The notes beneath the pieces are model-generated. The model was not told the DNA's origin. It saw nothing but the letters and a program-made list of their open reading frames with translations, and ran no database searches. Below, one piece after another: positions 33,926-42,792 of a DNA stretch of 64,000 nucleotides. The DNA is from Pontiella sp. GTDB taxonomy: Bacteria; Verrucomicrobiota; Kiritimatiellia; Kiritimatiellales; Pontiellaceae. Position 1 is the stretch's first letter; every line of letters starts with the position of its first letter. The stretch is taken from assembly GCA_050290185.1 (NCBI GenBank), contig JBNKHE010000002.1, positions 192,001 through 256,000 on the forward strand, read 5' to 3'. The position numbers were made by a program, and so were the translations under genes.

Positions 33926-34672
33926 TCAGCCGTGTGGATGGGCGTGCCGCAGGATGTGCGGGCGCTCCAAACCGTGGGCGAGCATGAGCGCTTCGTCGTT
34001 GAGAATGTCCAGCATAGGGCCGTCGGCGACGATCTTTCCTTCATCCAGCACGATAACGCGGGAACAAACCTCGACCGCCAGTTCCAGATCGTGCGTGGCG
34101 ATGATCCGCGTATGCTCGAACGAGCGCAGCAACTCGATCAACCGGCGGCGGGCACGCGGATCGAGGTTGGACGAGGGTTCGTCCATCACCAGAATATCCG
34201 GTTCCATGGCGAGGACGGTGGCGATGGCGACGGCCCGTTTTTCACCGGAAGAAAGTCGGTAGGGAGGTCGCTCCCGCAGATGGCTTGCACCCACCCGTTT
34301 CAGGGCAGAATCAACCCGTTCATCAATTTGCTCCGGCGACAACCCGGCGTTCAGCGGACCGAAGGCGACATCCTCGGCGACTGTCGGCATGAACAGCTGG
34401 TCGTCGGAATCCTGGAACACCATGCCGACCGCGCGCCGAACAACCTTGGCGGTTTTGCGCGTCACGGAGGTGATGTCGATACGGACTTCGCCGGTCCTGG
34501 TCGTTAGATAGCCGTTGAGGTGGTGCAGCAAGGTTGATTTTCCGGCCCCGTTGGCACCGACCAGCGCCACGGCGGATCCACGTTCGATACAAAATGAAAT
34601 CCCATTGAGCGCAACCGTGCCGTCGGGATAGCTGTAATGGAGTTCGCGAATTTCCAAAGCGGGATTGTTCAT
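33926..34672 (-). CDS. cbiO: ECF transporter ATPase (CbiO/NikO)
   Basis: GANGAGKST, VFQDSDDQLF, EDVAFGP, MDEPSSNLDP; His-rich tail HAHPHG. Confidence 0.9.
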   Translation of the reverse strand: MNNPALEIRELHYSYPDGTVALNGISFCIERGSAVALVGANGAGKSTLLHHLNGYLTTRTGEVRIDITSVTRKTAKVVRRAVGMVFQDSDDQLFMPTVAEDVAFGPLNAGLSPEQIDERVDSALKRVGASHLRERPPYRLSSGEKRAVAIATVLAMEPDILVMDEPSSNLDPRARRRLIELLRSFEHTRIIATHDLELAVEVCSRVIVLDEGKIVADGPMLDILNDEALMLAHGLERPHILRHAHPHG

Positions 34673-35475
34673 CGAATCGCCTCCGTCATCAGATGGCCCA
34701 GGACATCGGCGAGATTCCAGATCCGGGCGGCAATAAGATAGGCCAGCGAGCCGATCACGAATGCCGCATCCTGCCAGCGCAACGCCGCCGGATTCAGCAG
34801 GCGGACCTCCCCGTCAAAACCTCGCGCGACCATGGCGCGATAGACGCGGTCGGCACGATCCATCGATCGCAGCAGCATTTGGCCCACCAGCGAACCGTAT
34901 ACACGAAGCCGCAATGAAGCCGCACCATTGGTCCGTAACGCAATGCCGCGCATGATCCGCACGGCTTCGTCGGACACGACAAACAGGTAGCGGTAAAGGA
35001 AAAGTAGTTGCATCACGAAGACACGCGGAACGCCGAGCTGTTCCAATCCGGCGCCGAGACGATGCATACCCGTGCAGGCCACCAGCACCAGCGCCGCCCC
35101 GACCGTCAGGACGAAACGGAACAGGATCGAAGCGAACGAAACCCACCCGCCGGTCAGAACCACCGGCCCAAGAGAGCCGACTGGATGATGGTCTAGCAAA
35201 GGATTCACCAGCCCAATGACCACGGCGAACGGGGCTGCGACAAGCATCTTCTTCAGAATATGGCGCGCCGGAATGCGGCCAAACTCAGCGAGCAATACCG
35301 GATAAAGCAGAAAGGGAACGAGCGCGGATATTTCATAACGGGAAAACGACATGACCAGCCCGATGAATACCAGCGTGACCAGTATCTTGGCGCGGGCATC
35401 GAGACGATGGACCGGGGTATCCATCCGCCCCAGCTCATCCATCCGTCCGACTTCAATCCAATCCGCCATGCACAT
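34669..35475 (-). CDS. cbiQ: ECF transporter T component (CbiQ/NikQ)
   Basis: VHRLDARAKI, YRYLFV, RSMDRADRVYRAMVARGF. Confidence 0.9.
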   Translation of the reverse strand: MCMADWIEVGRMDELGRMDTPVHRLDARAKILVTLVFIGLVMSFSRYEISALVPFLLYPVLLAEFGRIPARHILKKMLVAAPFAVVIGLVNPLLDHHPVGSLGPVVLTGGWVSFASILFRFVLTVGAALVLVACTGMHRLGAGLEQLGVPRVFVMQLLFLYRYLFVVSDEAVRIMRGIALRTNGAASLRLRVYGSLVGQMLLRSMDRADRVYRAMVARGFDGEVRLLNPAALRWQDAAFVIGSLAYLIAARIWNLADVLGHLMTEAIR

Positions 35476-35485
35476 CCGATTTCCT

Positions 35486-36508
35486 CTACTCTATCCGCCC
35501 GGCCGGACGTAGCTTAAGCGCAAAACCCGTCAGTAAAACCAGCCCCAGCGTCAGCGATCCCCCAACAAGGCCCGACACGGAGGTTCCGGCGTTCACCGCA
35601 GGCCACGACTCTCCGGAATCATTTTCGGCTTCTGCCGTCTTGAAACCATAGTCCGGCAGGAACGCGGTTTTTTCCTGAAGACCGGCGAGATCCTTGTGGA
35701 TGCCCATATCGTCGCCGGAAACTTCTTCCTGTCCGGTTACCTTGGCGATGGACCATTCGAGCCCGTCGGGGTGCGTGGAGGCAAACCAGCTCACCGCACC
35801 GCCAACGATCGCCGCCACGATCGCCAGACCGACTAGTACCGACCGTACACGGACCGTCATTCCAGCCGCCACCTCCTGCTGCAGGATTTCCGGTCGCGCC
35901 CGGGCAACAAACGCAACCACAGTCGCCGTGGCCAACCCTTCCACCACGCCGATCGCCAGATGGATCGGCAACATCATGAGCGCGAACGTACCGAACGGAA
36001 GCTCGGAAATGCCGGACGCCGTGGTTTCGAGCACCACGCACAACGCGCCGAGCAGCAATCCAACCACGGCCGCCACGGCCGATGCCATCCAGGCCCGGGA
36101 TGTACCATGCCGCCCCTTTACCATCACCCGATAGAGCGGATACGCCACGAATACCGAGAGGAATCCCATATTGAAAATATTGCAACCCAGCGCCAGCAGG
36201 CCGCCGTCCGCAAAGAAGAAGGATTGGATGGTCAACACCGAAGCAATGACGAGAAAGGCCGCATAGGGACCGAGCAGAATCGCCAGCATCAGCCCGCCGA
36301 CGAGATGCCCGCTGGATCCCGTACCCGGAATCGAGAAGTTGATCATTTGTGCCGCGAAAATGAACGCCCCCATCACCCCCATCAGGGGCACGAGATGGTC
36401 CAGCATGGCCTGCTTCAGCTTGCGGGCGCAGAAAGCGATCAATCCGCCCGACACCGCCCACAGCGTCCCGCCCACAGCGGGGGAAATCAATGCGTCTGCC
36501 ATATGCAT
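35486..36508 (-). CDS. ECF substrate component Nik(MN)/Cbi(MN) fusion with PDGLE domain
   Basis: Metal-binding N-terminus MHMADAL, FAAQMINF, GSSGH, FADGGLLALG, ASTHPDGLE. Confidence 0.92.
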   Translation of the reverse strand: MHMADALISPAVGGTLWAVSGGLIAFCARKLKQAMLDHLVPLMGVMGAFIFAAQMINFSIPGTGSSGHLVGGLMLAILLGPYAAFLVIASVLTIQSFFFADGGLLALGCNIFNMGFLSVFVAYPLYRVMVKGRHGTSRAWMASAVAAVVGLLLGALCVVLETTASGISELPFGTFALMMLPIHLAIGVVEGLATATVVAFVARARPEILQQEVAAGMTVRVRSVLVGLAIVAAIVGGAVSWFASTHPDGLEWSIAKVTGQEEVSGDDMGIHKDLAGLQEKTAFLPDYGFKTAEAENDSGESWPAVNAGTSVSGLVGGSLTLGLVLLTGFALKLRPAGRIE

Positions 36509-36524
36509 GGTGCGATCCTCCTGT

Positions 36525-37289
36525 TTAGATTTCTGCCCCGAATGCCCACGTCAGTCCCGCCGTAGCCGTGATATCCGGCGCATCGCCGCAGATCTTCGTG
36601 CCCGCAGCCATATCCAGCGTCAAGGTTTCAATTGGACTCCACCGCAACCCTGTATTGCAGGCGGCTACGCTCTCGGCATCACTTGCACGTTCGTCTTCCG
36701 CAAACACCTCGCCGACCCACTGAACCGACGCTACGAGCTGATAATCAAGTGCCATGCCACCATGGACAACATCATGGTCCGGGCCGCCAACCCAGTTGTA
36801 GCCCAGATTGAGATGAGCGCCGAACCTTTCGCTTATCTTCCGGGAAACCACCCATGTCAGATCGTAATCTGTTTCTTCACTACCAAAACCTCTGTCTTTA
36901 TCCGCTGTTGGGACTTTCACGCCGGGAACAAGCGCATGCTGCGCTCCCAACGGGCATGATTCCAAAAACAACCATTTTGCACCCATTTCCAGATCACCGA
37001 TGCCGCTCTCGTGCATGGTACCCGCAAACTCTTTTCGGCGTTCCATTTGACCGCAGAAGGCAAAACCAACTTCGACATTCCTAACCAAGCCATAGGTGAG
37101 TCCGAACGGAAGTTCCCAATGTGTCGTTCCAGGATCCCGTTCATAGGCAAGCCCGGCTTCGAATTCGAACATTCCTTTTTCCACCGGATCCGCATCATCG
37201 ATTGCTAATGGCCTGCCCGCCCTTGAACTGGACACCACGCATAACACCACTGCAAAAACAACCGCTCGCAAGACTCTTACATTACCCAT
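36525..37289 (-). CDS. Outer-membrane beta-barrel transporter (Phenol_MetA_deg/SphA-like)
   Basis: Signal peptide, then GRPLAIDDAD; GIGDLEMGAKW, VKVPTAD, alternating beta strands, TAGLTWAF near the end. Confidence 0.7.
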   Translation of the reverse strand: MGNVRVLRAVVFAVVLCVVSSSRAGRPLAIDDADPVEKGMFEFEAGLAYERDPGTTHWELPFGLTYGLVRNVEVGFAFCGQMERRKEFAGTMHESGIGDLEMGAKWLFLESCPLGAQHALVPGVKVPTADKDRGFGSEETDYDLTWVVSRKISERFGAHLNLGYNWVGGPDHDVVHGGMALDYQLVASVQWVGEVFAEDERASDAESVAACNTGLRWSPIETLTLDMAAGTKICGDAPDITATAGLTWAFGAEI

Positions 37290-37338
37290 CACCCATCTCC
37301 TCCCACGCCACCGCCTGCGGAGTCGCGCCCCATCGCGA

Positions 37339-37365
37339 GTAACACCTATCAGAAATACGTAACAC
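37339..37365 (-). promoter_or_regulatory. NikR operator, direct repeat GTGTTAC-N13-GTGTTAC
   Basis: Plus strand GTAACAC-CTATCAGAAATAC-GTAACAC between nikR and the transporter operon. Confidence 0.75.
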
Positions 37366-37422
37366 GATTCGAGCAAATATGCCGATTTATTCCATAGGTT
37401 CGATGGGATTTGATGACTGGAC

Positions 37423-37836
37423 TCAGGAAAGCCGCCGCCCCGTCGTGGCCGCCGTCAGAGAAACATGCTTCAACCCTTTCACGGCCTTGAGGCACTTGAC
37501 CAATGCCTTTACGGTTTCGGGCCGGCCGCGCACGATGATGGTTTCGAGGCAGTTGTCGTGGTCGAGATGGATGTGCTGCGATGACAGGATGGTTTCGTGG
37601 TAGTCGTGCTGGATAGCCGTCAGCTTCCGCGACAAGTCGGGCTTGTGGTGATCGAACACCAGCACGATCGATCCGGCAATCTCCTCGCCCGTGGCCCATT
37701 CCGTCTGGATCAGGCTCGCCCGGATCAAATCACCGACTGCCTTTGACCGCGTCGGACAGCCGTCTTCCTGGATCTTCTCGTCAAACTGCCGAACCAGATC
37801 TTCATCAAGCGATATACTGAATCGTGTCAAAGCCAT
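37423..37836 (-). CDS. nikR: Nickel-responsive regulator NikR
   Basis: RHH N-terminus RFSISL..RSKAVGDLIR; DHH, QH, HIHLDHDNCLE nickel ligands. Confidence 0.96.
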   Translation of the reverse strand: MALTRFSISLDEDLVRQFDEKIQEDGCPTRSKAVGDLIRASLIQTEWATGEEIAGSIVLVFDHHKPDLSRKLTAIQHDYHETILSSQHIHLDHDNCLETIIVRGRPETVKALVKCLKAVKGLKHVSLTAATTGRRLS

Positions 37837-37959
37837 GTTTCTTCCCTCGGAAAACGGAAGCCTGTGTAGCATGTCCACAAAGCAAATGGCAATGGCCGGT
37901 CTGTTTGAAATCCGGAAAATAATTCCGCAAATATACTTCCTCTGGCAACGGGCGGAATG

Positions 37960-37994
37960 AAAAAAGACCGGCCTGCCAAAGCAGACCGGTCTTT
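37960..37994 (-). terminator. Rho-independent terminator after tRNA-Gly
   Basis: Minus strand AAAGACCGGTCTGC-TTTG-GCAGGCCGGTC-TTTTTT. Confidence 0.8.
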
Positions 37995-37997
37995 AAA

Positions 37998-38072
37998 TGG
38001 AGCGAGCGAAGAGATTCGAACTCTCGACATTCACCTTGGCAAGGTGAAGCTCTACCACTGAGCTACGCTCGC
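37998..38072 (-). tRNA. tRNA-Gly(GCC)
   Basis: GCGAGCGTAGCTCAGTGGTAGAGC-TTCACC-TTGCCAA-GGTGAA..GTTCGAATC..CGCTCGCTCCA. Confidence 0.97.
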
Positions 38073-38099
38073 TTAAAATCGTTTGTTTCACGCCATAAA

Positions 38100-38192
<93 letters not shown>

Positions 38193-38212
38193 TAAAGTGG
38201 AACGAGTCGGGA

Positions 38213-38241
38213 AAGCTACACACTCGTTCCGGGGAAATCAA
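38213..38241 (-). promoter_or_regulatory. Sigma70-type promoter of the tRNA-Ser/Gly operon
   Basis: TTGATT-N17-TAGCTT on the minus strand, about 20 bp upstream of tRNA-Ser. Confidence 0.5.
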
Positions 38242-38303
38242 CCGGGTTTTTCGTCCAATTTTCCGAACGAACAATCAAGTACCGATCCGGTCCGGATTGA
38301 CGC

Positions 38304-38330
38304 TTGACGAATCCCGGCCATTGCTATTTT
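38304..38330 (+). promoter_or_regulatory. Candidate promoter of the RAPP-leader/metal uptake operon
   Basis: TTGACG, then extended -10 TGC-TATTTT, ending about 10 bp before GTG 38340; spacing is short (15 bp). Confidence 0.4.
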
Positions 38331-38339
38331 CTATGCCGC

Positions 38340-38621
38340 GTGAAACCGAGACGAACCATTGTGGCATTGCTCTACCTTCTGATGATGGCAGTGCTTCCAT
38401 ATGCGCACCTCGCCTCCCATGCGCACGAGCATGGCCAAAGCGCGCACGACTCCTGCGCACTTTGCCACCTGCTGACGCTACCTGCCCACACGAGCGAGAC
38501 CGATGTTTCGGTAGAGTCGGCACTCCTTTTAACCGACGTAGTTTCAATATCGGTTCCAAAACCCGATCGCTTCCAACCGCTTCCCCACCAGGCCCGCGCC
38601 CCTCCGTTCATGACTGCCTAG
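38340..38621 (+). CDS. DUF2946/CruR-like leader peptide (TM, His-rich, CxxC, C-terminal RAPP arrest motif)
   Basis: GTG start: MKPRR-TIVALLYLLMMAVLPY-AHLASHAHEHGQSAHDS-CALC-H...PLPHQA-RAPP-FMTA*; 66 bp upstream of a metal uptake operon. Confidence 0.8.
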   Translation: MKPRRTIVALLYLLMMAVLPYAHLASHAHEHGQSAHDSCALCHLLTLPAHTSETDVSVESALLLTDVVSISVPKPDRFQPLPHQARAPPFMTA

Positions 38622-38687
38622 CTTCATCACGAAATGTCCCCGACGGGGACCTGCAGTCATTTGAATATATCAACGGAGATTTTTATA

Positions 38688-39896
38688 ATGAAACAATTCA
38701 TTGTGCCCGCGCTGGTTGCGTCGGGCCTGCTTGCGCACACCTATGCGGACGACGCATCGCTAAAGGCGTTCAATCCCGCCGTATCGGTAATCGTCGACGG
38801 CATGTACTACCACGAGAATTCCGAAGAGGGGATGGGCCACCTCAAGGAGGAAATATCCGGTTTTGGCCACGCCCATGCCGGAGAAGAACACGACCATGAG
38901 CACGGCATGGAGAACGGGTTCAACCTACGCCATCTCGAAATCCAGTTTTCGGCGGAGGTCGACAGCTACTTCAAGGCCTCGGCCATCGCCGCCATTTCGG
39001 AAGAGGGCGCCGAAATGGAAACCGCCGAAATCCAGACCACCGGCCTGCCCTGGGGACTCCAGGCCAGGGCCGGCAAGTTTTTCAGCGACTTCGGCTACAT
39101 CAATGCCCAGCATACCCACCAATGGGACTTTGCCGACCGGCCACTGATCTACGAGCTGGCACTGGGCGATCACGGACTGAACGACAAGGGAGTCCAGCTT
39201 TCCTGGCTGGCCCCCACCCCGGTCTACCTGCTGGTGGGCGTGGAAGCGTTCCAAGGCGATAACGAAAAGATGTATGTCCAGCAGGAGGCGGACGAATTAC
39301 CGGTCAACGACGGGCCGCGACTCGGCGTCGGCTGGATCAAGATCGCCCCGCTGCAGTCCGACAACCACGCGCTGCAACTGGGACTGTTCGGCGCTTCGGG
39401 CAGCCATCAGGAAATCCACGAAGAAGTCGCATCGACCAACTTCTACGACGGCGTCAACTGGTTCTGCGGCGGCGACGTGGTCTACAAGTACGATTCCGCC
39501 CGCGCCTACGGGCAGGGCGATGCGACGTTGCAGGCGGAATATTTCCTCCGCAACACCGACCTCGACCTGCAGGGAGCCGGCGGCCAGCTGGAGGCGGAGC
39601 AGGACGGATACTACGTCCAGGGCACCTATGGGTTCCTCCCCCGTTGGCGCGGCGGACTGCGCTGGGAGCAGGTTGGGTTAATCAACGAATCACAGGAACC
39701 CGGCGAGGTCAGGGAGGAGTTTGGCGAAAGCTGGCGCACCAGTGCGATGGTCGATTTCAGCCCGTCGGAGTTCTCGCGCATCCGCTTCCAAGTCAACAAC
39801 GGCGATTATGAAACGGCAGAAGGCACCCAGAACGTTTGGGAGGCCTTTGTTCAGCTCACCGTTTCGCTCGGCGCGCACGGCGCACACAAGTTCTAG
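38688..39896 (+). CDS. His-rich outer-membrane beta-barrel (putative metal porin)
   Basis: Signal peptide, FNPAVSVIVDG, GHAHAGEEHDHEHG, NAQHTHQWDF, PSEFSRIRFQ, C-terminus LGAHGAHKF; about 400 aa, too short for a TonB-dependent receptor. Confidence 0.8.
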   Translation: MKQFIVPALVASGLLAHTYADDASLKAFNPAVSVIVDGMYYHENSEEGMGHLKEEISGFGHAHAGEEHDHEHGMENGFNLRHLEIQFSAEVDSYFKASAIAAISEEGAEMETAEIQTTGLPWGLQARAGKFFSDFGYINAQHTHQWDFADRPLIYELALGDHGLNDKGVQLSWLAPTPVYLLVGVEAFQGDNEKMYVQQEADELPVNDGPRLGVGWIKIAPLQSDNHALQLGLFGASGSHQEIHEEVASTNFYDGVNWFCGGDVVYKYDSARAYGQGDATLQAEYFLRNTDLDLQGAGGQLEAEQDGYYVQGTYGFLPRWRGGLRWEQVGLINESQEPGEVREEFGESWRTSAMVDFSPSEFSRIRFQVNNGDYETAEGTQNVWEAFVQLTVSLGAHGAHKF

Positions 39897-39904
39897 GAGA
39901 CCCC

Positions 39905-40810
39905 ATGAAAAACTATGTATCAATACTACTGCTCTCGTTCGTATTCGCATCCGCCGCCCAGGCCGGTAAATTCAAGATCGTAACCACCACGTCCGACCTC
40001 GGCTCGATTGCCCAGGCTGTGGCGGGCGACCACGCCGACGTGCAGTCTGTCTGCACCGGAAACCAGGACCCGCACCATCTGCAGGCGCGTCCGAAATACA
40101 TCATGATGGCGCGCAATGCGGATCTATGGATCCGCACCGGCATGGAACTGGAGATCGGCTGGGAAATGCCGGTGATCGACGGATCGCGCAACCGCAAAAT
40201 CCGCCCCGGCCAGCCGGGCCATCTCGACGCATCCACGAACATTGAAAAACTCGATGTTCCGGATGCGCAAACACTCAGCCGCGGCATGGGCGATGTCCAT
40301 GCGCAGGGGAATCCGCACTACCTGACCGACCCGCTGAATGCGAAGCTGGTGGCCGGCGACATCGCCGAGCGGCTGGCGCAGCTCGATCCGGCCAACGCCG
40401 AATCCTACCGTGCCAACGCCCAGGCGTTACAGGCCGAGATCGACCGGCGCATGGCGGTTTGGCAGGAAAAACTGGCGTCGCTCAAAGAGCAGTCCATCGT
40501 GACCTACCACAAAAGCTGGGTCTATTTCGTCCATCGCTTCGGAATGGATATAGCGATCGAGCTTGAACCCAAACCCGGCGTTCCGCCTAGCCCGGCGCAT
40601 CTGGCGCAGGTCGAGGAAACGGTTCGTCGCAAAGGGATAGGCCTAATTCTTCAGGAGCCGTGGTACAGCACGAAGGCGGCAAAACGCGTGGCGGAAGCAA
40701 CCGGCGCGCGCATCGTCGTGGCCCCCATCATGACGGGTGGCGATCCGGCGGCGACCGACTACCTGTCGCTCATCGACCTGATCGTCGATCGGCTGGCAGA
40801 GAAGGAGTAA
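39905..40810 (+). CDS. Metal ABC transporter substrate-binding protein (ZnuA/TroA cluster A-I)
   Basis: IVTTTSDL, DPHH, GNPHY, DPANAESY..N, YHKSW, EPKPGVPPSPAHL. Confidence 0.92.
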   Translation: MKNYVSILLLSFVFASAAQAGKFKIVTTTSDLGSIAQAVAGDHADVQSVCTGNQDPHHLQARPKYIMMARNADLWIRTGMELEIGWEMPVIDGSRNRKIRPGQPGHLDASTNIEKLDVPDAQTLSRGMGDVHAQGNPHYLTDPLNAKLVAGDIAERLAQLDPANAESYRANAQALQAEIDRRMAVWQEKLASLKEQSIVTYHKSWVYFVHRFGMDIAIELEPKPGVPPSPAHLAQVEETVRRKGIGLILQEPWYSTKAAKRVAEATGARIVVAPIMTGGDPAATDYLSLIDLIVDRLAEKE

Positions 40811-40813
40811 ACC

Positions 40814-41494
40814 ATGAGTGGATCGATCATCCGATGCCGCGAGGTGTGCGTGGCCTACGGTCGCCAGGAAGTACTGCACCGGGTCGACCTGGACATTCCC
40901 AACGGCGCGTTTCTCCCCTTCACCGGCCCCAACGGCGCGGGAAAAACCACGTTGCTCCGCGCCATTCTCGGGTTGCTCCCGATCCGGCACGGCCGTATCG
41001 AAACGCCGTTCCACCGCGCACCGGCGGGCTATGTCCCGCAGCAGAAGGTGATCGATCCGCTCTATCCCGTCAGCGCCCGCCAGATTGTCGAAATGGGGCT
41101 CCATCGGCAACGCGGCTGGCTGCGGCGCATCACGAAAAGCCAGCGCAGCGCGGTCGATGCCGCGCTGGAGCAACTCGGCATGGCGGAGCATGCCGAAAAA
41201 AACTTCCGCGAACTCTCCGGCGGCATGAAGCAGAAAATCCTCATCGCCCGCGCCTTTGTCTGCGGCTCGGAGGTGATCATTCTGGACGAACCAACCTCCG
41301 AGCTGGACGACCGCTCGGAAGAGGAAGTGCTCCAGCACTTACGGGTCCTGAACCGGGAACATGGCAAAACCGTGCTGATGGTCCACCACGATCTCGACCG
41401 TGTCCATTTGCTGTCGGATTCCATGTGCCGCGTACGCCACGGCAACGCGGAAATCGTTTCCACCCAGGGAACGGAAGGACGCAACGATGCATAA
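40814..41494 (+). CDS. Metal ABC transporter ATPase (ZnuC-like)
   Basis: GPNGAGKTT, GYVPQ, LSGGMKQ, LDEPT, HHDL. Confidence 0.92.
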   Translation: MSGSIIRCREVCVAYGRQEVLHRVDLDIPNGAFLPFTGPNGAGKTTLLRAILGLLPIRHGRIETPFHRAPAGYVPQQKVIDPLYPVSARQIVEMGLHRQRGWLRRITKSQRSAVDAALEQLGMAEHAEKNFRELSGGMKQKILIARAFVCGSEVIILDEPTSELDDRSEEEVLQHLRVLNREHGKTVLMVHHDLDRVHLLSDSMCRVRHGNAEIVSTQGTEGRNDA

Positions 41495-42320
41495 CGCCAT
41501 GCAATGCCTCTATTGCCAGTTTCCCGAAGCACTGACGGCGGGCCTGCTGGTTTCGGCCGTTTGCGCCCTGCTGGGGGTTTTCGTGATCCTCAAGCGCGCG
41601 GTATTCATCGGGATCACCCTCTCCGAGGTGGCCACCTTCGGCGTTGCGACCTCGTTCCTGCTTGGAGTTCCACCCTTTGCCGGGTCGCTCGTTTCTGTGT
41701 TGGCGGCGGTGTCGCTGCTGGCTATTCCATTCGAGAACCAACGGATTCCGCGCGATACGCTGATGGGGATTCTGTTTATTGCCGCCTCAGCCCTCGCGGT
41801 GCTGCTGGTTTCGAAAAGCGGGCCGGGCCTGATGGAGATCGAGGCGGTGCTGTATGGCGACCTGATCCTCACCTCCCGCAAGGAGCTGTTTTTGTTGTTT
41901 GCCACACTGATTCCGGCCCAGCTGGTTTTCCTGCTGGCGTTCCGCCCCATCCTCTATTCGTTTCTCGACCGCGAGGCGGCGAAGGTGCTTGGCATCCGGA
42001 CCTGGATTTGGGAATCGCTCTATTTTGTCATGCTGGGACTGGTGATTTCGGCGACTTCACAAATAGCCGGCGCGCTGCTGGTCTTCTGCTATCTCGTCGT
42101 CTGCCCGGCCACAGCGCTGGTACTGAGCAAGCGCATGACCATGGTAATGGTGGCCGCGCCGCTGTTCGCCATGGTTTCGACCTTCGCGGGCATGGTGGTT
42201 TCGTTCAACCACGACCTCCCCACCAACCAAACGATCTGCCTCGCCGCATGCGCCCTGTTCGCTATCGGCGCGGTGCTGAAGCGCCTATGCTCGTTCCTCG
42301 CCGGGCTCAGGATTCGCTGA
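41487..42320 (+). CDS. Metal ABC transporter permease (ZnuB/ABC-3)
   Basis: LGVFVILKR, LYGDL, DREAA..G, GALLV; multiple TM helices. Confidence 0.9.
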   Translation: MHNAMQCLYCQFPEALTAGLLVSAVCALLGVFVILKRAVFIGITLSEVATFGVATSFLLGVPPFAGSLVSVLAAVSLLAIPFENQRIPRDTLMGILFIAASALAVLLVSKSGPGLMEIEAVLYGDLILTSRKELFLLFATLIPAQLVFLLAFRPILYSFLDREAAKVLGIRTWIWESLYFVMLGLVISATSQIAGALLVFCYLVVCPATALVLSKRMTMVMVAAPLFAMVSTFAGMVVSFNHDLPTNQTICLAACALFAIGAVLKRLCSFLAGLRIR

Positions 42321-42792
42321 ACCGGCCTTCGAGCGCGCGTTGTACGAGTTCGGGCACAAACTGGGAGATGTCGCCTCCGAGCGAAGCCACGGTGCGGACG
42401 TTGCTGGAGCTGACGTAGCTATAGTCCTGCTTCGGCATCAGGAAGATGGTTTCGATCTCCGGCTTCAGCTTCCGGTTGGTCAGAGCCATCTGGAACTCGT
42501 ATTCAAAATCGGAAAAAGCCCGCAAACCGCGAACGATGACATGGACGTTTTTCGATAGGGCAAAGTCCACCAGCAGCCCATCGAAGTGGTCCACCTCAAT
42601 CCCTTCGATATGGGACGTGGATTCGCGTACGAGCTGCAGCCGCTCTTCTAGAGAAAACAGCGGATTCTTGCCGGGGTTGGTGGCTACGGCGATAACTATG
42701 CGCGGAAAGATGCGCGACGCACGCTCAATGACATCGAGATGCCCCAGGGTCAAGGGATCAAAGGTTCCTGCGCAGATGGCCGCCTGGTTCAT
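42307..42792 (-). CDS. coaD: Phosphopantetheine adenylyltransferase
   Basis: GTFDPLTLGHLD, RGLRAFSDFEYE, VSSS. Confidence 0.97.
   Translation of the reverse strand: MNQAAICAGTFDPLTLGHLDVIERASRIFPRIVIAVATNPGKNPLFSLEERLQLVRESTSHIEGIEVDHFDGLLVDFALSKNVHVIVRGLRAFSDFEYEFQMALTNRKLKPEIETIFLMPKQDYSYVSSSNVRTVASLGGDISQFVPELVQRALEGRFSES

Follow-up and report, generated by a model that had tools for sequence, protein, structure and literature searches.

The DNA analyzed here is a 64,000-nt window of Pontiella sp. (contig JBNKHE010000002.1; all positions are those of the window). The locus studied, 38340..42320, carries a short leader open reading frame (ORF) ending in a RAPP motif, followed by genes for a porin and a ZnuA-type ATP-binding cassette (ABC) importer. 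We regard it as very likely that the ORF is a real cis-regulatory leader. The best explanation of the locus as a whole, put forward with slightly more confidence than doubt, is that the leader encodes a DUF2946-like arrest peptide of the CruR/CutF type, which controls in cis whether the porin-ABC operon is translated. The Pro-Pro codons of the RAPP motif and the last four leader codons pair, as sequence and covariation show, with the intergenic region, burying the porin's Shine-Dalgarno (SD) sequence; that the SD is occluded and that the stall is the ON state is strongly to be expected.

The leader ORF (38340..38621, + strand) has a GTG start and a TAG stop and encodes 93 residues, arranged as a basic start (MKPRR), a hydrophobic helix, His23, C39xxC42, a spacer, RAPP and FMTA. 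Its hydrophobic stretch reaches a best 19-residue Kyte-Doolittle mean of 2.07, from residue 7. Residues 23–36 (HLASHAHEHGQSAH) are His-rich and contain HxxxH (His23 and His27), and the Cys site reads C39-A-L-C42-H43. The RAPP codons (CGC GCC CCT CCG, 38595-38606, + strand; residues 86–89) are the predicted stall site, positioned by analogy to the CruR toeprint, and four codons (FMTA) separate them from the stop. An earlier note on this DNA had described the ORF, its basic n-region, hydrophobic segment, CALCH and RAPP in the same way, and all were confirmed; the spacer, given there as about 40 residues, is 43 residues long when counted from C42 to R86. The porin ATG (38688) is 66 nt beyond the leader stop, and divergent tRNA genes lie upstream of the leader, which heads the operon. 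The genome holds 36,566 stop-to-stop frames that are 50 residues or longer; 23 of them end in R[AG]PP, and the leader alone also has CxxC 38–50 residues before this ending, an arrangement not due to chance. It is also the sole significant match when a leader profile is searched against the genome. In the AlphaFold2 (AF2) model the leader has helices at residues 3–28 and 40–46, the remainder being extended; with a predicted template modeling score (pTM) of 0.41, this model was kept out of metal-site geometry.

Conservation was assessed in two sets of porin loci, so that the sampling covers Kiritimatiellae and Proteobacteria. Porin searches gave matches in 24 of 61 relatives and then in 116 of 251 genomes of the class Kiritimatiellae; the returns of both searches and 40 loci picked across the score range made up 94 loci, of which 11 were excluded as duplicates, fragments or loci with no upstream DNA, leaving 83. 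The proteobacterial set is the best 80 of at least 598 relatives, obtained by a GTDB scan with 14 more distant porins; its record titles are all beta/gamma-proteobacterial or unclassified proteobacterial. A leader was called when a hydrophobic segment, CxxC, 43–48 residues and xxPP close to the stop were present. By this rule, a leader precedes the porin in 72 of the 83 Kiritimatiellae loci (11 are without it) and in 77 of the best 80 proteobacterial loci, the remaining 3 of which have at most 152 nt upstream. The gene for a solute-binding protein (SBP) lies downstream in all of these 80, and the leader always stands directly upstream of the first gene. The synteny foreseen in the earlier note is thus conserved, and the ORF with its RAPP and CxxC motifs, whose loss from orthologous loci was to speak against the proposal, is kept in relatives.

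The 149 leaders have a mean column identity of 13%. His23 (148 leaders), Cys39 (143) and Cys42 (149) are near-invariant; PP is present in 149/149, partly by search definition, since PP and one Cys belonged to the leader search rule, whereas His23 did not. The spacing from CxxC to the motif is 43–48 residues, mostly 43–45, and the linker from His to Cys varies by ∼30 residues. In the C-terminal half length alone is conserved, and an extended conformation is predicted. Of the His/Cys sensor proposed earlier, His23 and the two Cys are therefore conserved, and the long His stretch is not. Among 16 close relatives, the difference is highest at third codon positions (0.65, versus 0.54 and 0.45), which is the pattern expected of a coding gene. 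Leaders with other endings were also seen: CGPP, often as LPFSCGPP and at the same spacing (L036, L039, L041, L053, L062, L063, L065, L217-L219, L223 and L224), GAPP (L101, L129, L148), RDPP (L097, L143), QGPP and QAPP. CGPP is absent from the main text of PMC10987492 and may be an undescribed variant of the arrest motif.

Within the codons CCT CCG TTC at the leader-porin junction lies CTCCGT, which is exactly complementary to the ACGGAG SD region. In the minimum free energy structure, this anti-SD within the Pro-Pro codons forms the 5′ arm of helix P1 (38602..38607, + strand) and pairs with the porin SD as the 3′ arm (38673..38678, + strand). Helix P2 (38608..38664, + strand) joins the last leader codons (38608-38617) to 38653-38664, and a small GC hairpin (38636-38650, + strand) is predicted inside it. 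The fold has an energy of −26.9 kcal/mol (z −2.5; 5 of 200 shuffles were equally good). The predicted unpaired probability of the SD is 0.00 in the free mRNA and 0.64 if the 24 nt that begin with the Arg codon are blocked; in 16 close relatives, that of GGAG is 0.00–0.01 and rises to 0.12–0.77 under the same 24-nt block. Because the Pro-Pro codons are the porin anti-SD, a stall should open the ribosome-binding site of the porin, as in SecM and CutF. An Rfam scan of 37800-38900 found no family at the leader or hairpin, tRNAs alone reaching gathering scores.

The first Pro codon of the motif is CCT in 16/16 close relatives, in which codon usage is mixed at other invariant residues; across the class, CCT stands there in 48 of 72 loci, compared to 138 of 1332 Pro codons of the same porin genes. 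Where CCT and GGAG occur together, 35 of 43 loci have the second Pro codon's wobble base paired with the base just 5′ to GGAG (G-C 16, U-A 14, U-G 3, G-U 1 and A-U 1). On a quick porin tree, G-C marks the genus clade and recurs in L073, U-A lies on several other branches and A-U occurs in L013 beside a G-U sister; the pair types thus reflect a few independent switches, not 35. In Kiritimatiellae, 59 of 72 loci pair better with their native codons than after synonymous recoding, and the SD pairs inside the ribosome footprint in 70 of 77 proteobacterial loci.

The predicted structure was also compared with an alignment of 23 sequences. It has 84.7% of its cells paired, versus 37–46% when it is slid along the alignment, a comparison that favors it because it was derived from the same 23 sequences. 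Double-sided changes occur at 7 of 19 pairs overall and at 5 of 8 P2 pairs, and helix P1 is 96.2% paired with 2 double-sided changes. Of 500 shuffles, none were as high in cells paired or in covariation score, and 42 were as high in pair count. RNAalifold, run on a MAFFT alignment, recovered the SD helix alone. Compared to partner-shuffled duplexes, own-locus duplexes are more favorable at the Pro-Pro window in Kiritimatiellae (z −8.1) and at and just after the motif in Proteobacteria (z −4.8 and −7.1), values which are overstated, and to that extent count less for the pairing, since related loci are not independent. The same duplex test gave no favorable z beyond −1.5 in five upstream windows.

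These features would fit together as follows. By analogy with CruR and other RAPP peptides, the ribosome would stall, its P and A sites occupied by the two Pro codons; the stalled ribosome would melt the hairpin, and porin and importer would be made. If the N-terminal helix sits in the membrane, Cys42 and Cys39 would be 46 and 49 residues from the P-site, approximately at the periplasmic exit of SecY; ∼50 extended residues are reported to span the distance from the peptidyl transferase center to this exit (10.1101/2020.07.06.189464). Metal joining His23, and perhaps His27, to the CxxC could then pull on the chain and release the stall, after which the hairpin would re-form and uptake would be OFF. 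Rho polarity may reinforce the OFF state as a second layer. That metal releases the stall is probable, judging from CruR, and a metal that ends the stall and closes the SD would suit an importer. Zinc-driven folding is reported to release a SecM stall (PMC4571824). Periplasmic sensing is plausible, as it fits the leader geometry.

The porin gene (38688..39896, + strand) encodes 402 residues and matches Porin_O_P with 23.4 bits. Its AF2 model, built with 123 sequences, has 16 strands and a predicted local distance difference test score (pLDDT) of 92.7, and its best Foldseek matches are OmpT, OprP, VhChiP and OprO. The C-terminus reads GAHGAHKF; H142, H144, H397 and H400 are kept in at least 90% of 123 homologs. 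A TonB-dependent receptor is a 22-stranded barrel with a plug domain. No Plug match was found in the 402-residue, 16-stranded porin, and the label of TonB-dependent receptor carried by its homologs was rejected on these grounds and on its structural matches. The closest named homologs are from Pontiellaceae/Kiritimatiellia, so that the earlier description of the host as PVC (Planctomycetes-Verrucomicrobia-Chlamydiae)-like was right; the coupling of a RAPP leader to a non-TonB porin and a Zn-type importer in such a bacterium likewise stands, being conserved. In L002, L015, L040 and L063, a His/Cys-rich tail replaces the terminal GAHGAHxF of the porin, the leader is kept and no SBP hit lies downstream.

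As the earlier note had it, the porin is followed by a cluster A-I metal ABC transporter. It consists of the SBP (39905..40810, + strand; PF01297, 192.6 bits versus a cut-off of 29), an AztA/ZnuC-like ATPase (40814..41494, + strand) and an AztB/ZnuB-like ABC-3 permease (41487..42320, + strand). PF01297 has no other match in the genome, and the SBP scores under all named NCBIfam equivalog cut-offs; a ZIP gene is also present in the genome. Alignment to 2ov1 and YfeA places the ligands of the SBP at His57, His138 and His202, the last of which aligns with a His of the zinc-uptake SBP 2ov1 and with a Glu of YfeA. A His at this third ligand position favors zinc. At distances of up to 4 kb from the 80 proteobacterial loci, the gene neighbors include COG0523 (10), single-Cys DksA (7), Fur-family (6), ZrgA (5) and ZIP (4) proteins, types which are Zur-regulon members (PMC6103462, review table; PMC2770081). 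On the SBP and these neighbors, we lean toward zinc as the main signal, and we infer from sequence that zinc is also the transported metal.

At the end of the operon, a convergent gene (42307-42792, − strand), which reads like coaD, overlaps the permease by 14 nt, leaving no space for a separate terminator; an intrinsic terminator scan of the plus strand found none. Of the proteobacterial loci, 72 extend at least 2.5 kb downstream; just 13 of these gave an ABC ATPase hit, and 15 gave a permease hit with one query. Many proteobacterial operons may lack their own ATPase, but permease detection is also poor.

Upstream of the leader, a putative −35 element TTGACG (38304..38309, + strand) lies 36 nt before the start, with a −10 that is not canonical. 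An element TTG[AGC][CA] stands 35–38 nt ahead of the start codon in 13 of 16 aligned relatives, all 16 of which lack an SD before the leader; the leader mRNA is probably leaderless. A sigma-70 scan misses the putative −35 at 38304, and a genome-wide test of leaderless-promoter geometry gave no enrichment. A sigma-70-like TTGAAT-17-TATAAT at 38661-38689 was rejected: it overlaps the SD and start codon of the porin and is not conserved in alignments.

In line with the earlier note, the DNA upstream of the leader showed no conserved operator palindrome; a 9-bp inverted repeat with a 14-nt spacer (38199-38230), by the 5′ end of tRNA-Ser, is not conserved in aligned relatives. TGCAAC-N3-GTTGCA, presumably a Zur box although the literature consulted did not confirm this, does not occur with at most one mismatch before the leader in any of 72 Kiritimatiellae loci; it occurs in 3 of 77 proteobacterial loci, with 6 looser matches within 4 kb. 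The statement that no regulator gene is visible has to be qualified, because nikR (37423-37836, − strand; above the NCBIfam NikR cut-off) starts ∼500 bp from the leader, with tRNA-Gly and tRNA-Ser in between. It belongs to a cluster on the − strand (33926-37836; nikR, a Phenol_MetA_deg-type barrel, cbiM-PDGLE, cbiQ and cbiO) that stands back to back with the porin operon and is a probable NikR-controlled Ni/Co energy-coupling factor importer with its own outer-membrane channel. The evidence does not support control of the porin operon by NikR: two tRNA genes lie in between, operator-like repeats of at least 6 bp are not conserved, and NikR is near only 2 of 83 Kiritimatiellae loci (short flanks). 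More probably, nikR serves the divergent barrel-cbiM/Q/O cluster.

The genome's only Fur-family gene is on another contig, and tblastn with the Fur-family protein that adjoins the operon in some relatives gave no match in the genome; Fur-family proteins adjoining the operons reach no Zur or Fur cut-off. In a PF01475 survey of 80 porin-bearing class genomes (four leader-bearing genomes were left out, and one was without upstream DNA), 32 of 68 leader-bearing genomes had no match, and all 11 leaderless genomes had one. A Fur-family gene is adjacent in six leaderless loci, four of which share TTATTGCAA-N6-TTGCAATAA before it, and 4 of 72 class relatives have a Fur-family gene before the leader, both together. 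In the small genomes of L017, L020, L021 and L022, which have no RAPP leader, this TTATTGCAA-N6-TTGCAATAA palindrome and Fur-family and MerC-family genes precede a divergent porin. This distribution suggests that the leader replaces a repressor; since five of the six loci with an adjacent Fur-family gene are close kin and most genomes are incomplete metagenome-assembled genomes, replacement is suggested rather than shown. A widespread zinc-sensing nascent-peptide switch, with a membrane-anchored His/Cys site that a 43–45-residue ruler keeps at the periplasmic SecY mouth and that turns periplasmic zinc into a pull on the RAPP-stalled ribosome, anti-SD stall codons and a dedicated His-lined zinc porin, standing in for Zur in those lineages that gave no Fur-family match, is a tentative reading with somewhat less than an even chance.

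The leader is not confined to porin operons. A reverse search with the leader gave 87 matches in 81 of 251 class genomes, and 16 further leader matches were examined, 15 of them away from porin hits; some are cut by contig ends or look spurious. The loci outside the porin context are L213, L214, L217-L220, L223 and L224, and some genomes carry two or three leaders. The occurrence of the same leader clade before varied genes indicates a portable module.

Several observations weigh against the proposed zinc-responsive switch. Apart from one before a ZnuA-family protein, the real leaders among the 16 further matches stand in front of TonB receptors (5), an ankyrin-repeat protein and a pilin-like N-methylation protein, and one of these TonB receptors scores best, below cut-off, on a copper-receptor model; the leader alone is thus no indicator of zinc. 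HxxxH is retained in 76 of 77 proteobacterial leaders and in just 19 of 72 Kiritimatiellae leaders, so that a four-ligand metal site is not general. Zinc-type neighbors occur in a minority of loci. In the comparison with DUF2946 suggested earlier, the leader scores 18.4 bits on PF11162 (E 0.0037), below the cut-off of 23.7, and E-values of 0.01 or lower are reached by 69 of 149 relatives (lowest 2.4e-07). On the RNA side, the covarying position is mismatched in 8 of 43 loci, synonymous recoding weakens pairing in just 45 of 77 proteobacterial loci, and the Pro-Pro arm captures the SD with a probability above 0.5 in only 46 of 72 Kiritimatiellae and 52 of 77 proteobacterial loci. Stalling is presumed from the motif, and gene starts were called automatically, a few of them probably wrongly. 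Finally, CutF needs its signal (10.1101/2025.02.05.636593), but CruR regulation survives removal of the export signal (PMC9426467).

Among the alternatives, the same arrest-peptide switch could sense a metal other than zinc (Cu, Ni, Co or Mn) or have a promiscuous site. In CruR, CxxC is a Cu ligand and mediates the Cu response (PMC9426467), which counts against zinc, as does the leader clade's presence before the receptor that fits the copper TonB model best; His-containing CutF-like clusters are linked to Ni/Co genes, and nikR is close to the leader in the window and in L049. However, the SBP is of the three-His type, Zur-regulon-type neighbors do occur, and no copper-homeostasis gene was found among the recurring neighbor clusters scanned (16 of ∼140, most of the others being shadow-frame-like). 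The CbiM/NikR system of the window is a separate one, and the rarity of NikR near the Kiritimatiellae loci (2/83, short flanks) also argues against this alternative. On balance a non-zinc signal is unlikely. Still less probable is secretion or redox monitoring (a SecM-like pull or a CxxC disulfide), or simply a small metal-binding protein that is exported. The first RAPP peptides to be discovered were monitors of Sec/YidC (PMC10987492), and disulfide-linked folding generates force at the SecY exit (10.1101/2020.07.06.189464); this reading is nevertheless very unlikely, given that neither a sec nor a yidC gene follows the leader, that the near-invariant His and the metal-uptake context favor metal, that the C-terminal half is unconserved save in length and predicted to be extended, and that the leader is always immediately before the first gene.

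In CruR-like transcriptional attenuation, the stall would chiefly shield a Rho utilization (rut) site from Rho, sensing would be cytoplasmic and the hairpin secondary. CruR works in this way and tolerates loss of its export signal, rho is encoded in the genome, and C-G skew at the stall site averages 0.22, versus ∼0 in porin genes (68 C and 42 G at this site in the window), a C-rich stretch that fits Rho control too and so counts against SD occlusion. Part of the skew, however, comes from the Pro codons; the gap of 66 nt, compared to 162 nt in CruR, is mostly paired; the compensatory changes target the SD specifically; and the plus-strand scan found no intrinsic terminator. We consider Rho as the main output improbable. 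The earlier note's appeal to CruR logic is thus upheld for the kinship of the RAPP leader, while the output is best explained by SD occlusion as in CutF or SecM and not primarily by Rho. A CutF-like polarity, in which metal would induce or prolong the stall and the operon would be metal-induced, finds a parallel in the RNA, since CutF combines an SD-hiding stem-loop with a Cu-induced stall and the RNA architecture here is of that kind. It is highly improbable all the same: the downstream genes encode an importer, RAPP motifs stall intrinsically, and CutF carries CxxxC and a different proline motif.

The usual explanation of bacterial zinc uptake is the transcriptional repressor Zur. If SD occlusion by a zinc-responsive arrest peptide is true, many Gram-negative lineages set zinc import post-transcriptionally, possibly from the periplasmic zinc level, and sensing of the CruR/CutF type extends from copper to another metal. 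The polarity of CruR, in which metal turns uptake off, would be combined with the output of SecM and CutF, exposure of an SD. Such a leader would be a protein-based counterpart of a zinc riboswitch; to our knowledge, no zinc riboswitch had been described as of Roy 2022. A large family labeled 'zinc-regulated TonB-dependent receptor' would be reassigned to small porins. Because the anti-SD lies in synonymous positions, RNA pairing and peptide arrest are separable by single-codon changes, which makes metal-driven release of the RAPP stall directly testable.

A literature search found no study on a zinc-responsive RAPP leader or a porin of this type, most subscription papers being outside its coverage. 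The combination, described earlier as uncharacterized, is in this sense new, but it is not confined to PVC bacteria, and the gene pairs do occur in a machine-made supplementary list of 2025 (PMC12992588). Its 4B source data contain at least 9 rows with the leader-porin gene order; in one, QBG48836.1, annotated as a DUF2946 domain-containing protein, precedes a product of 430 aa that agrees in name and length with a homolog 72% identical to the porin. The list puts a TonB label on the downstream product, which the porin fold contradicts, and the main text of PMC12992588 lacks 'zinc' and 'ZnuA' and describes no hairpin, metal or test for these pairs. The synteny section of PMC9426467 deals with TonB receptors, PepSY proteins and copper chaperones, and zinc, ABC or porin do not occur in its main text. 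DUF2946 has been linked to copper (10.1101/072470); in Caulobacter, DUF2946 genes are among the Zur-dependent genes, one heading a zinc efflux operon (PMC4176598).

Like CruR (Bp2923 of Bordetella pertussis, DUF2946/PF11162; PMC9426467), whose arrest was toeprinted with Pro codons in the P and A sites (PMC12992588), the leader is the first gene of a metal-uptake operon and has an N-terminal export segment, CxxC and RAPP a few codons before the stop; the CxxC-RAPP spacing is 43 residues here and 45 plus or minus 1–2 in CruR (PMC9426467). Different from CruR, which acts on a TonB receptor and a PepSY protein, it precedes a 16-stranded porin and a ZnuA-type ABC importer, where copper-homeostasis genes are the usual DUF2946 pattern. 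It also shows a near-invariant His that follows the helix, and its shorter gap contains a covarying hairpin that occludes the SD, whereas CruR has a demonstrated Rho terminator, and the metal is probably Zn rather than copper. Like CutF of Rhodobacter capsulatus (PMC9973294, 10.1101/2025.02.05.636593), it would be an exported nascent metal sensor next to a stem-loop that hides the SD of the next gene, and the stall is predicted to open that SD. CutF has CxxxC, a proline-rich tail, a Cu-induced stall and a detoxifying oxidase as target; here we find CxxC and RAPP, an anti-SD made of the Pro-Pro codons and an importer, so that the expected effect of metal is the opposite.

SecM, ApdA/ApdP and the RQH peptides (PMC10987492) share with the leader a RAPP-like arrest motif, an N-terminal localization signal and the exposure of a downstream SD by the stall, which is the ON state for SecM and an RQH peptide. 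These peptides monitor Sec/YidC and precede sec or yidC genes, and PMC10987492 describes no metal site in them. Like ZnuABC and AztABC under Zur (PMC6103462, PMC2770081), the operon encodes an SBP, an ATPase and an ABC-3 permease and has Zur-regulon-type neighbors in relatives; different from them, it has an arrest-peptide leader, a dedicated porin and no conserved operator in the genome. Taken together, the leader is best called DUF2946-like, of the CruR/CutF kind: motif, spacing and position fit, whereas the Pfam cut-off and the copper context do not. What is new compared to CruR and CutF is the target, a small porin with a ZnuA-type importer, the output, an anti-SD in the stall codons, and probably the metal.

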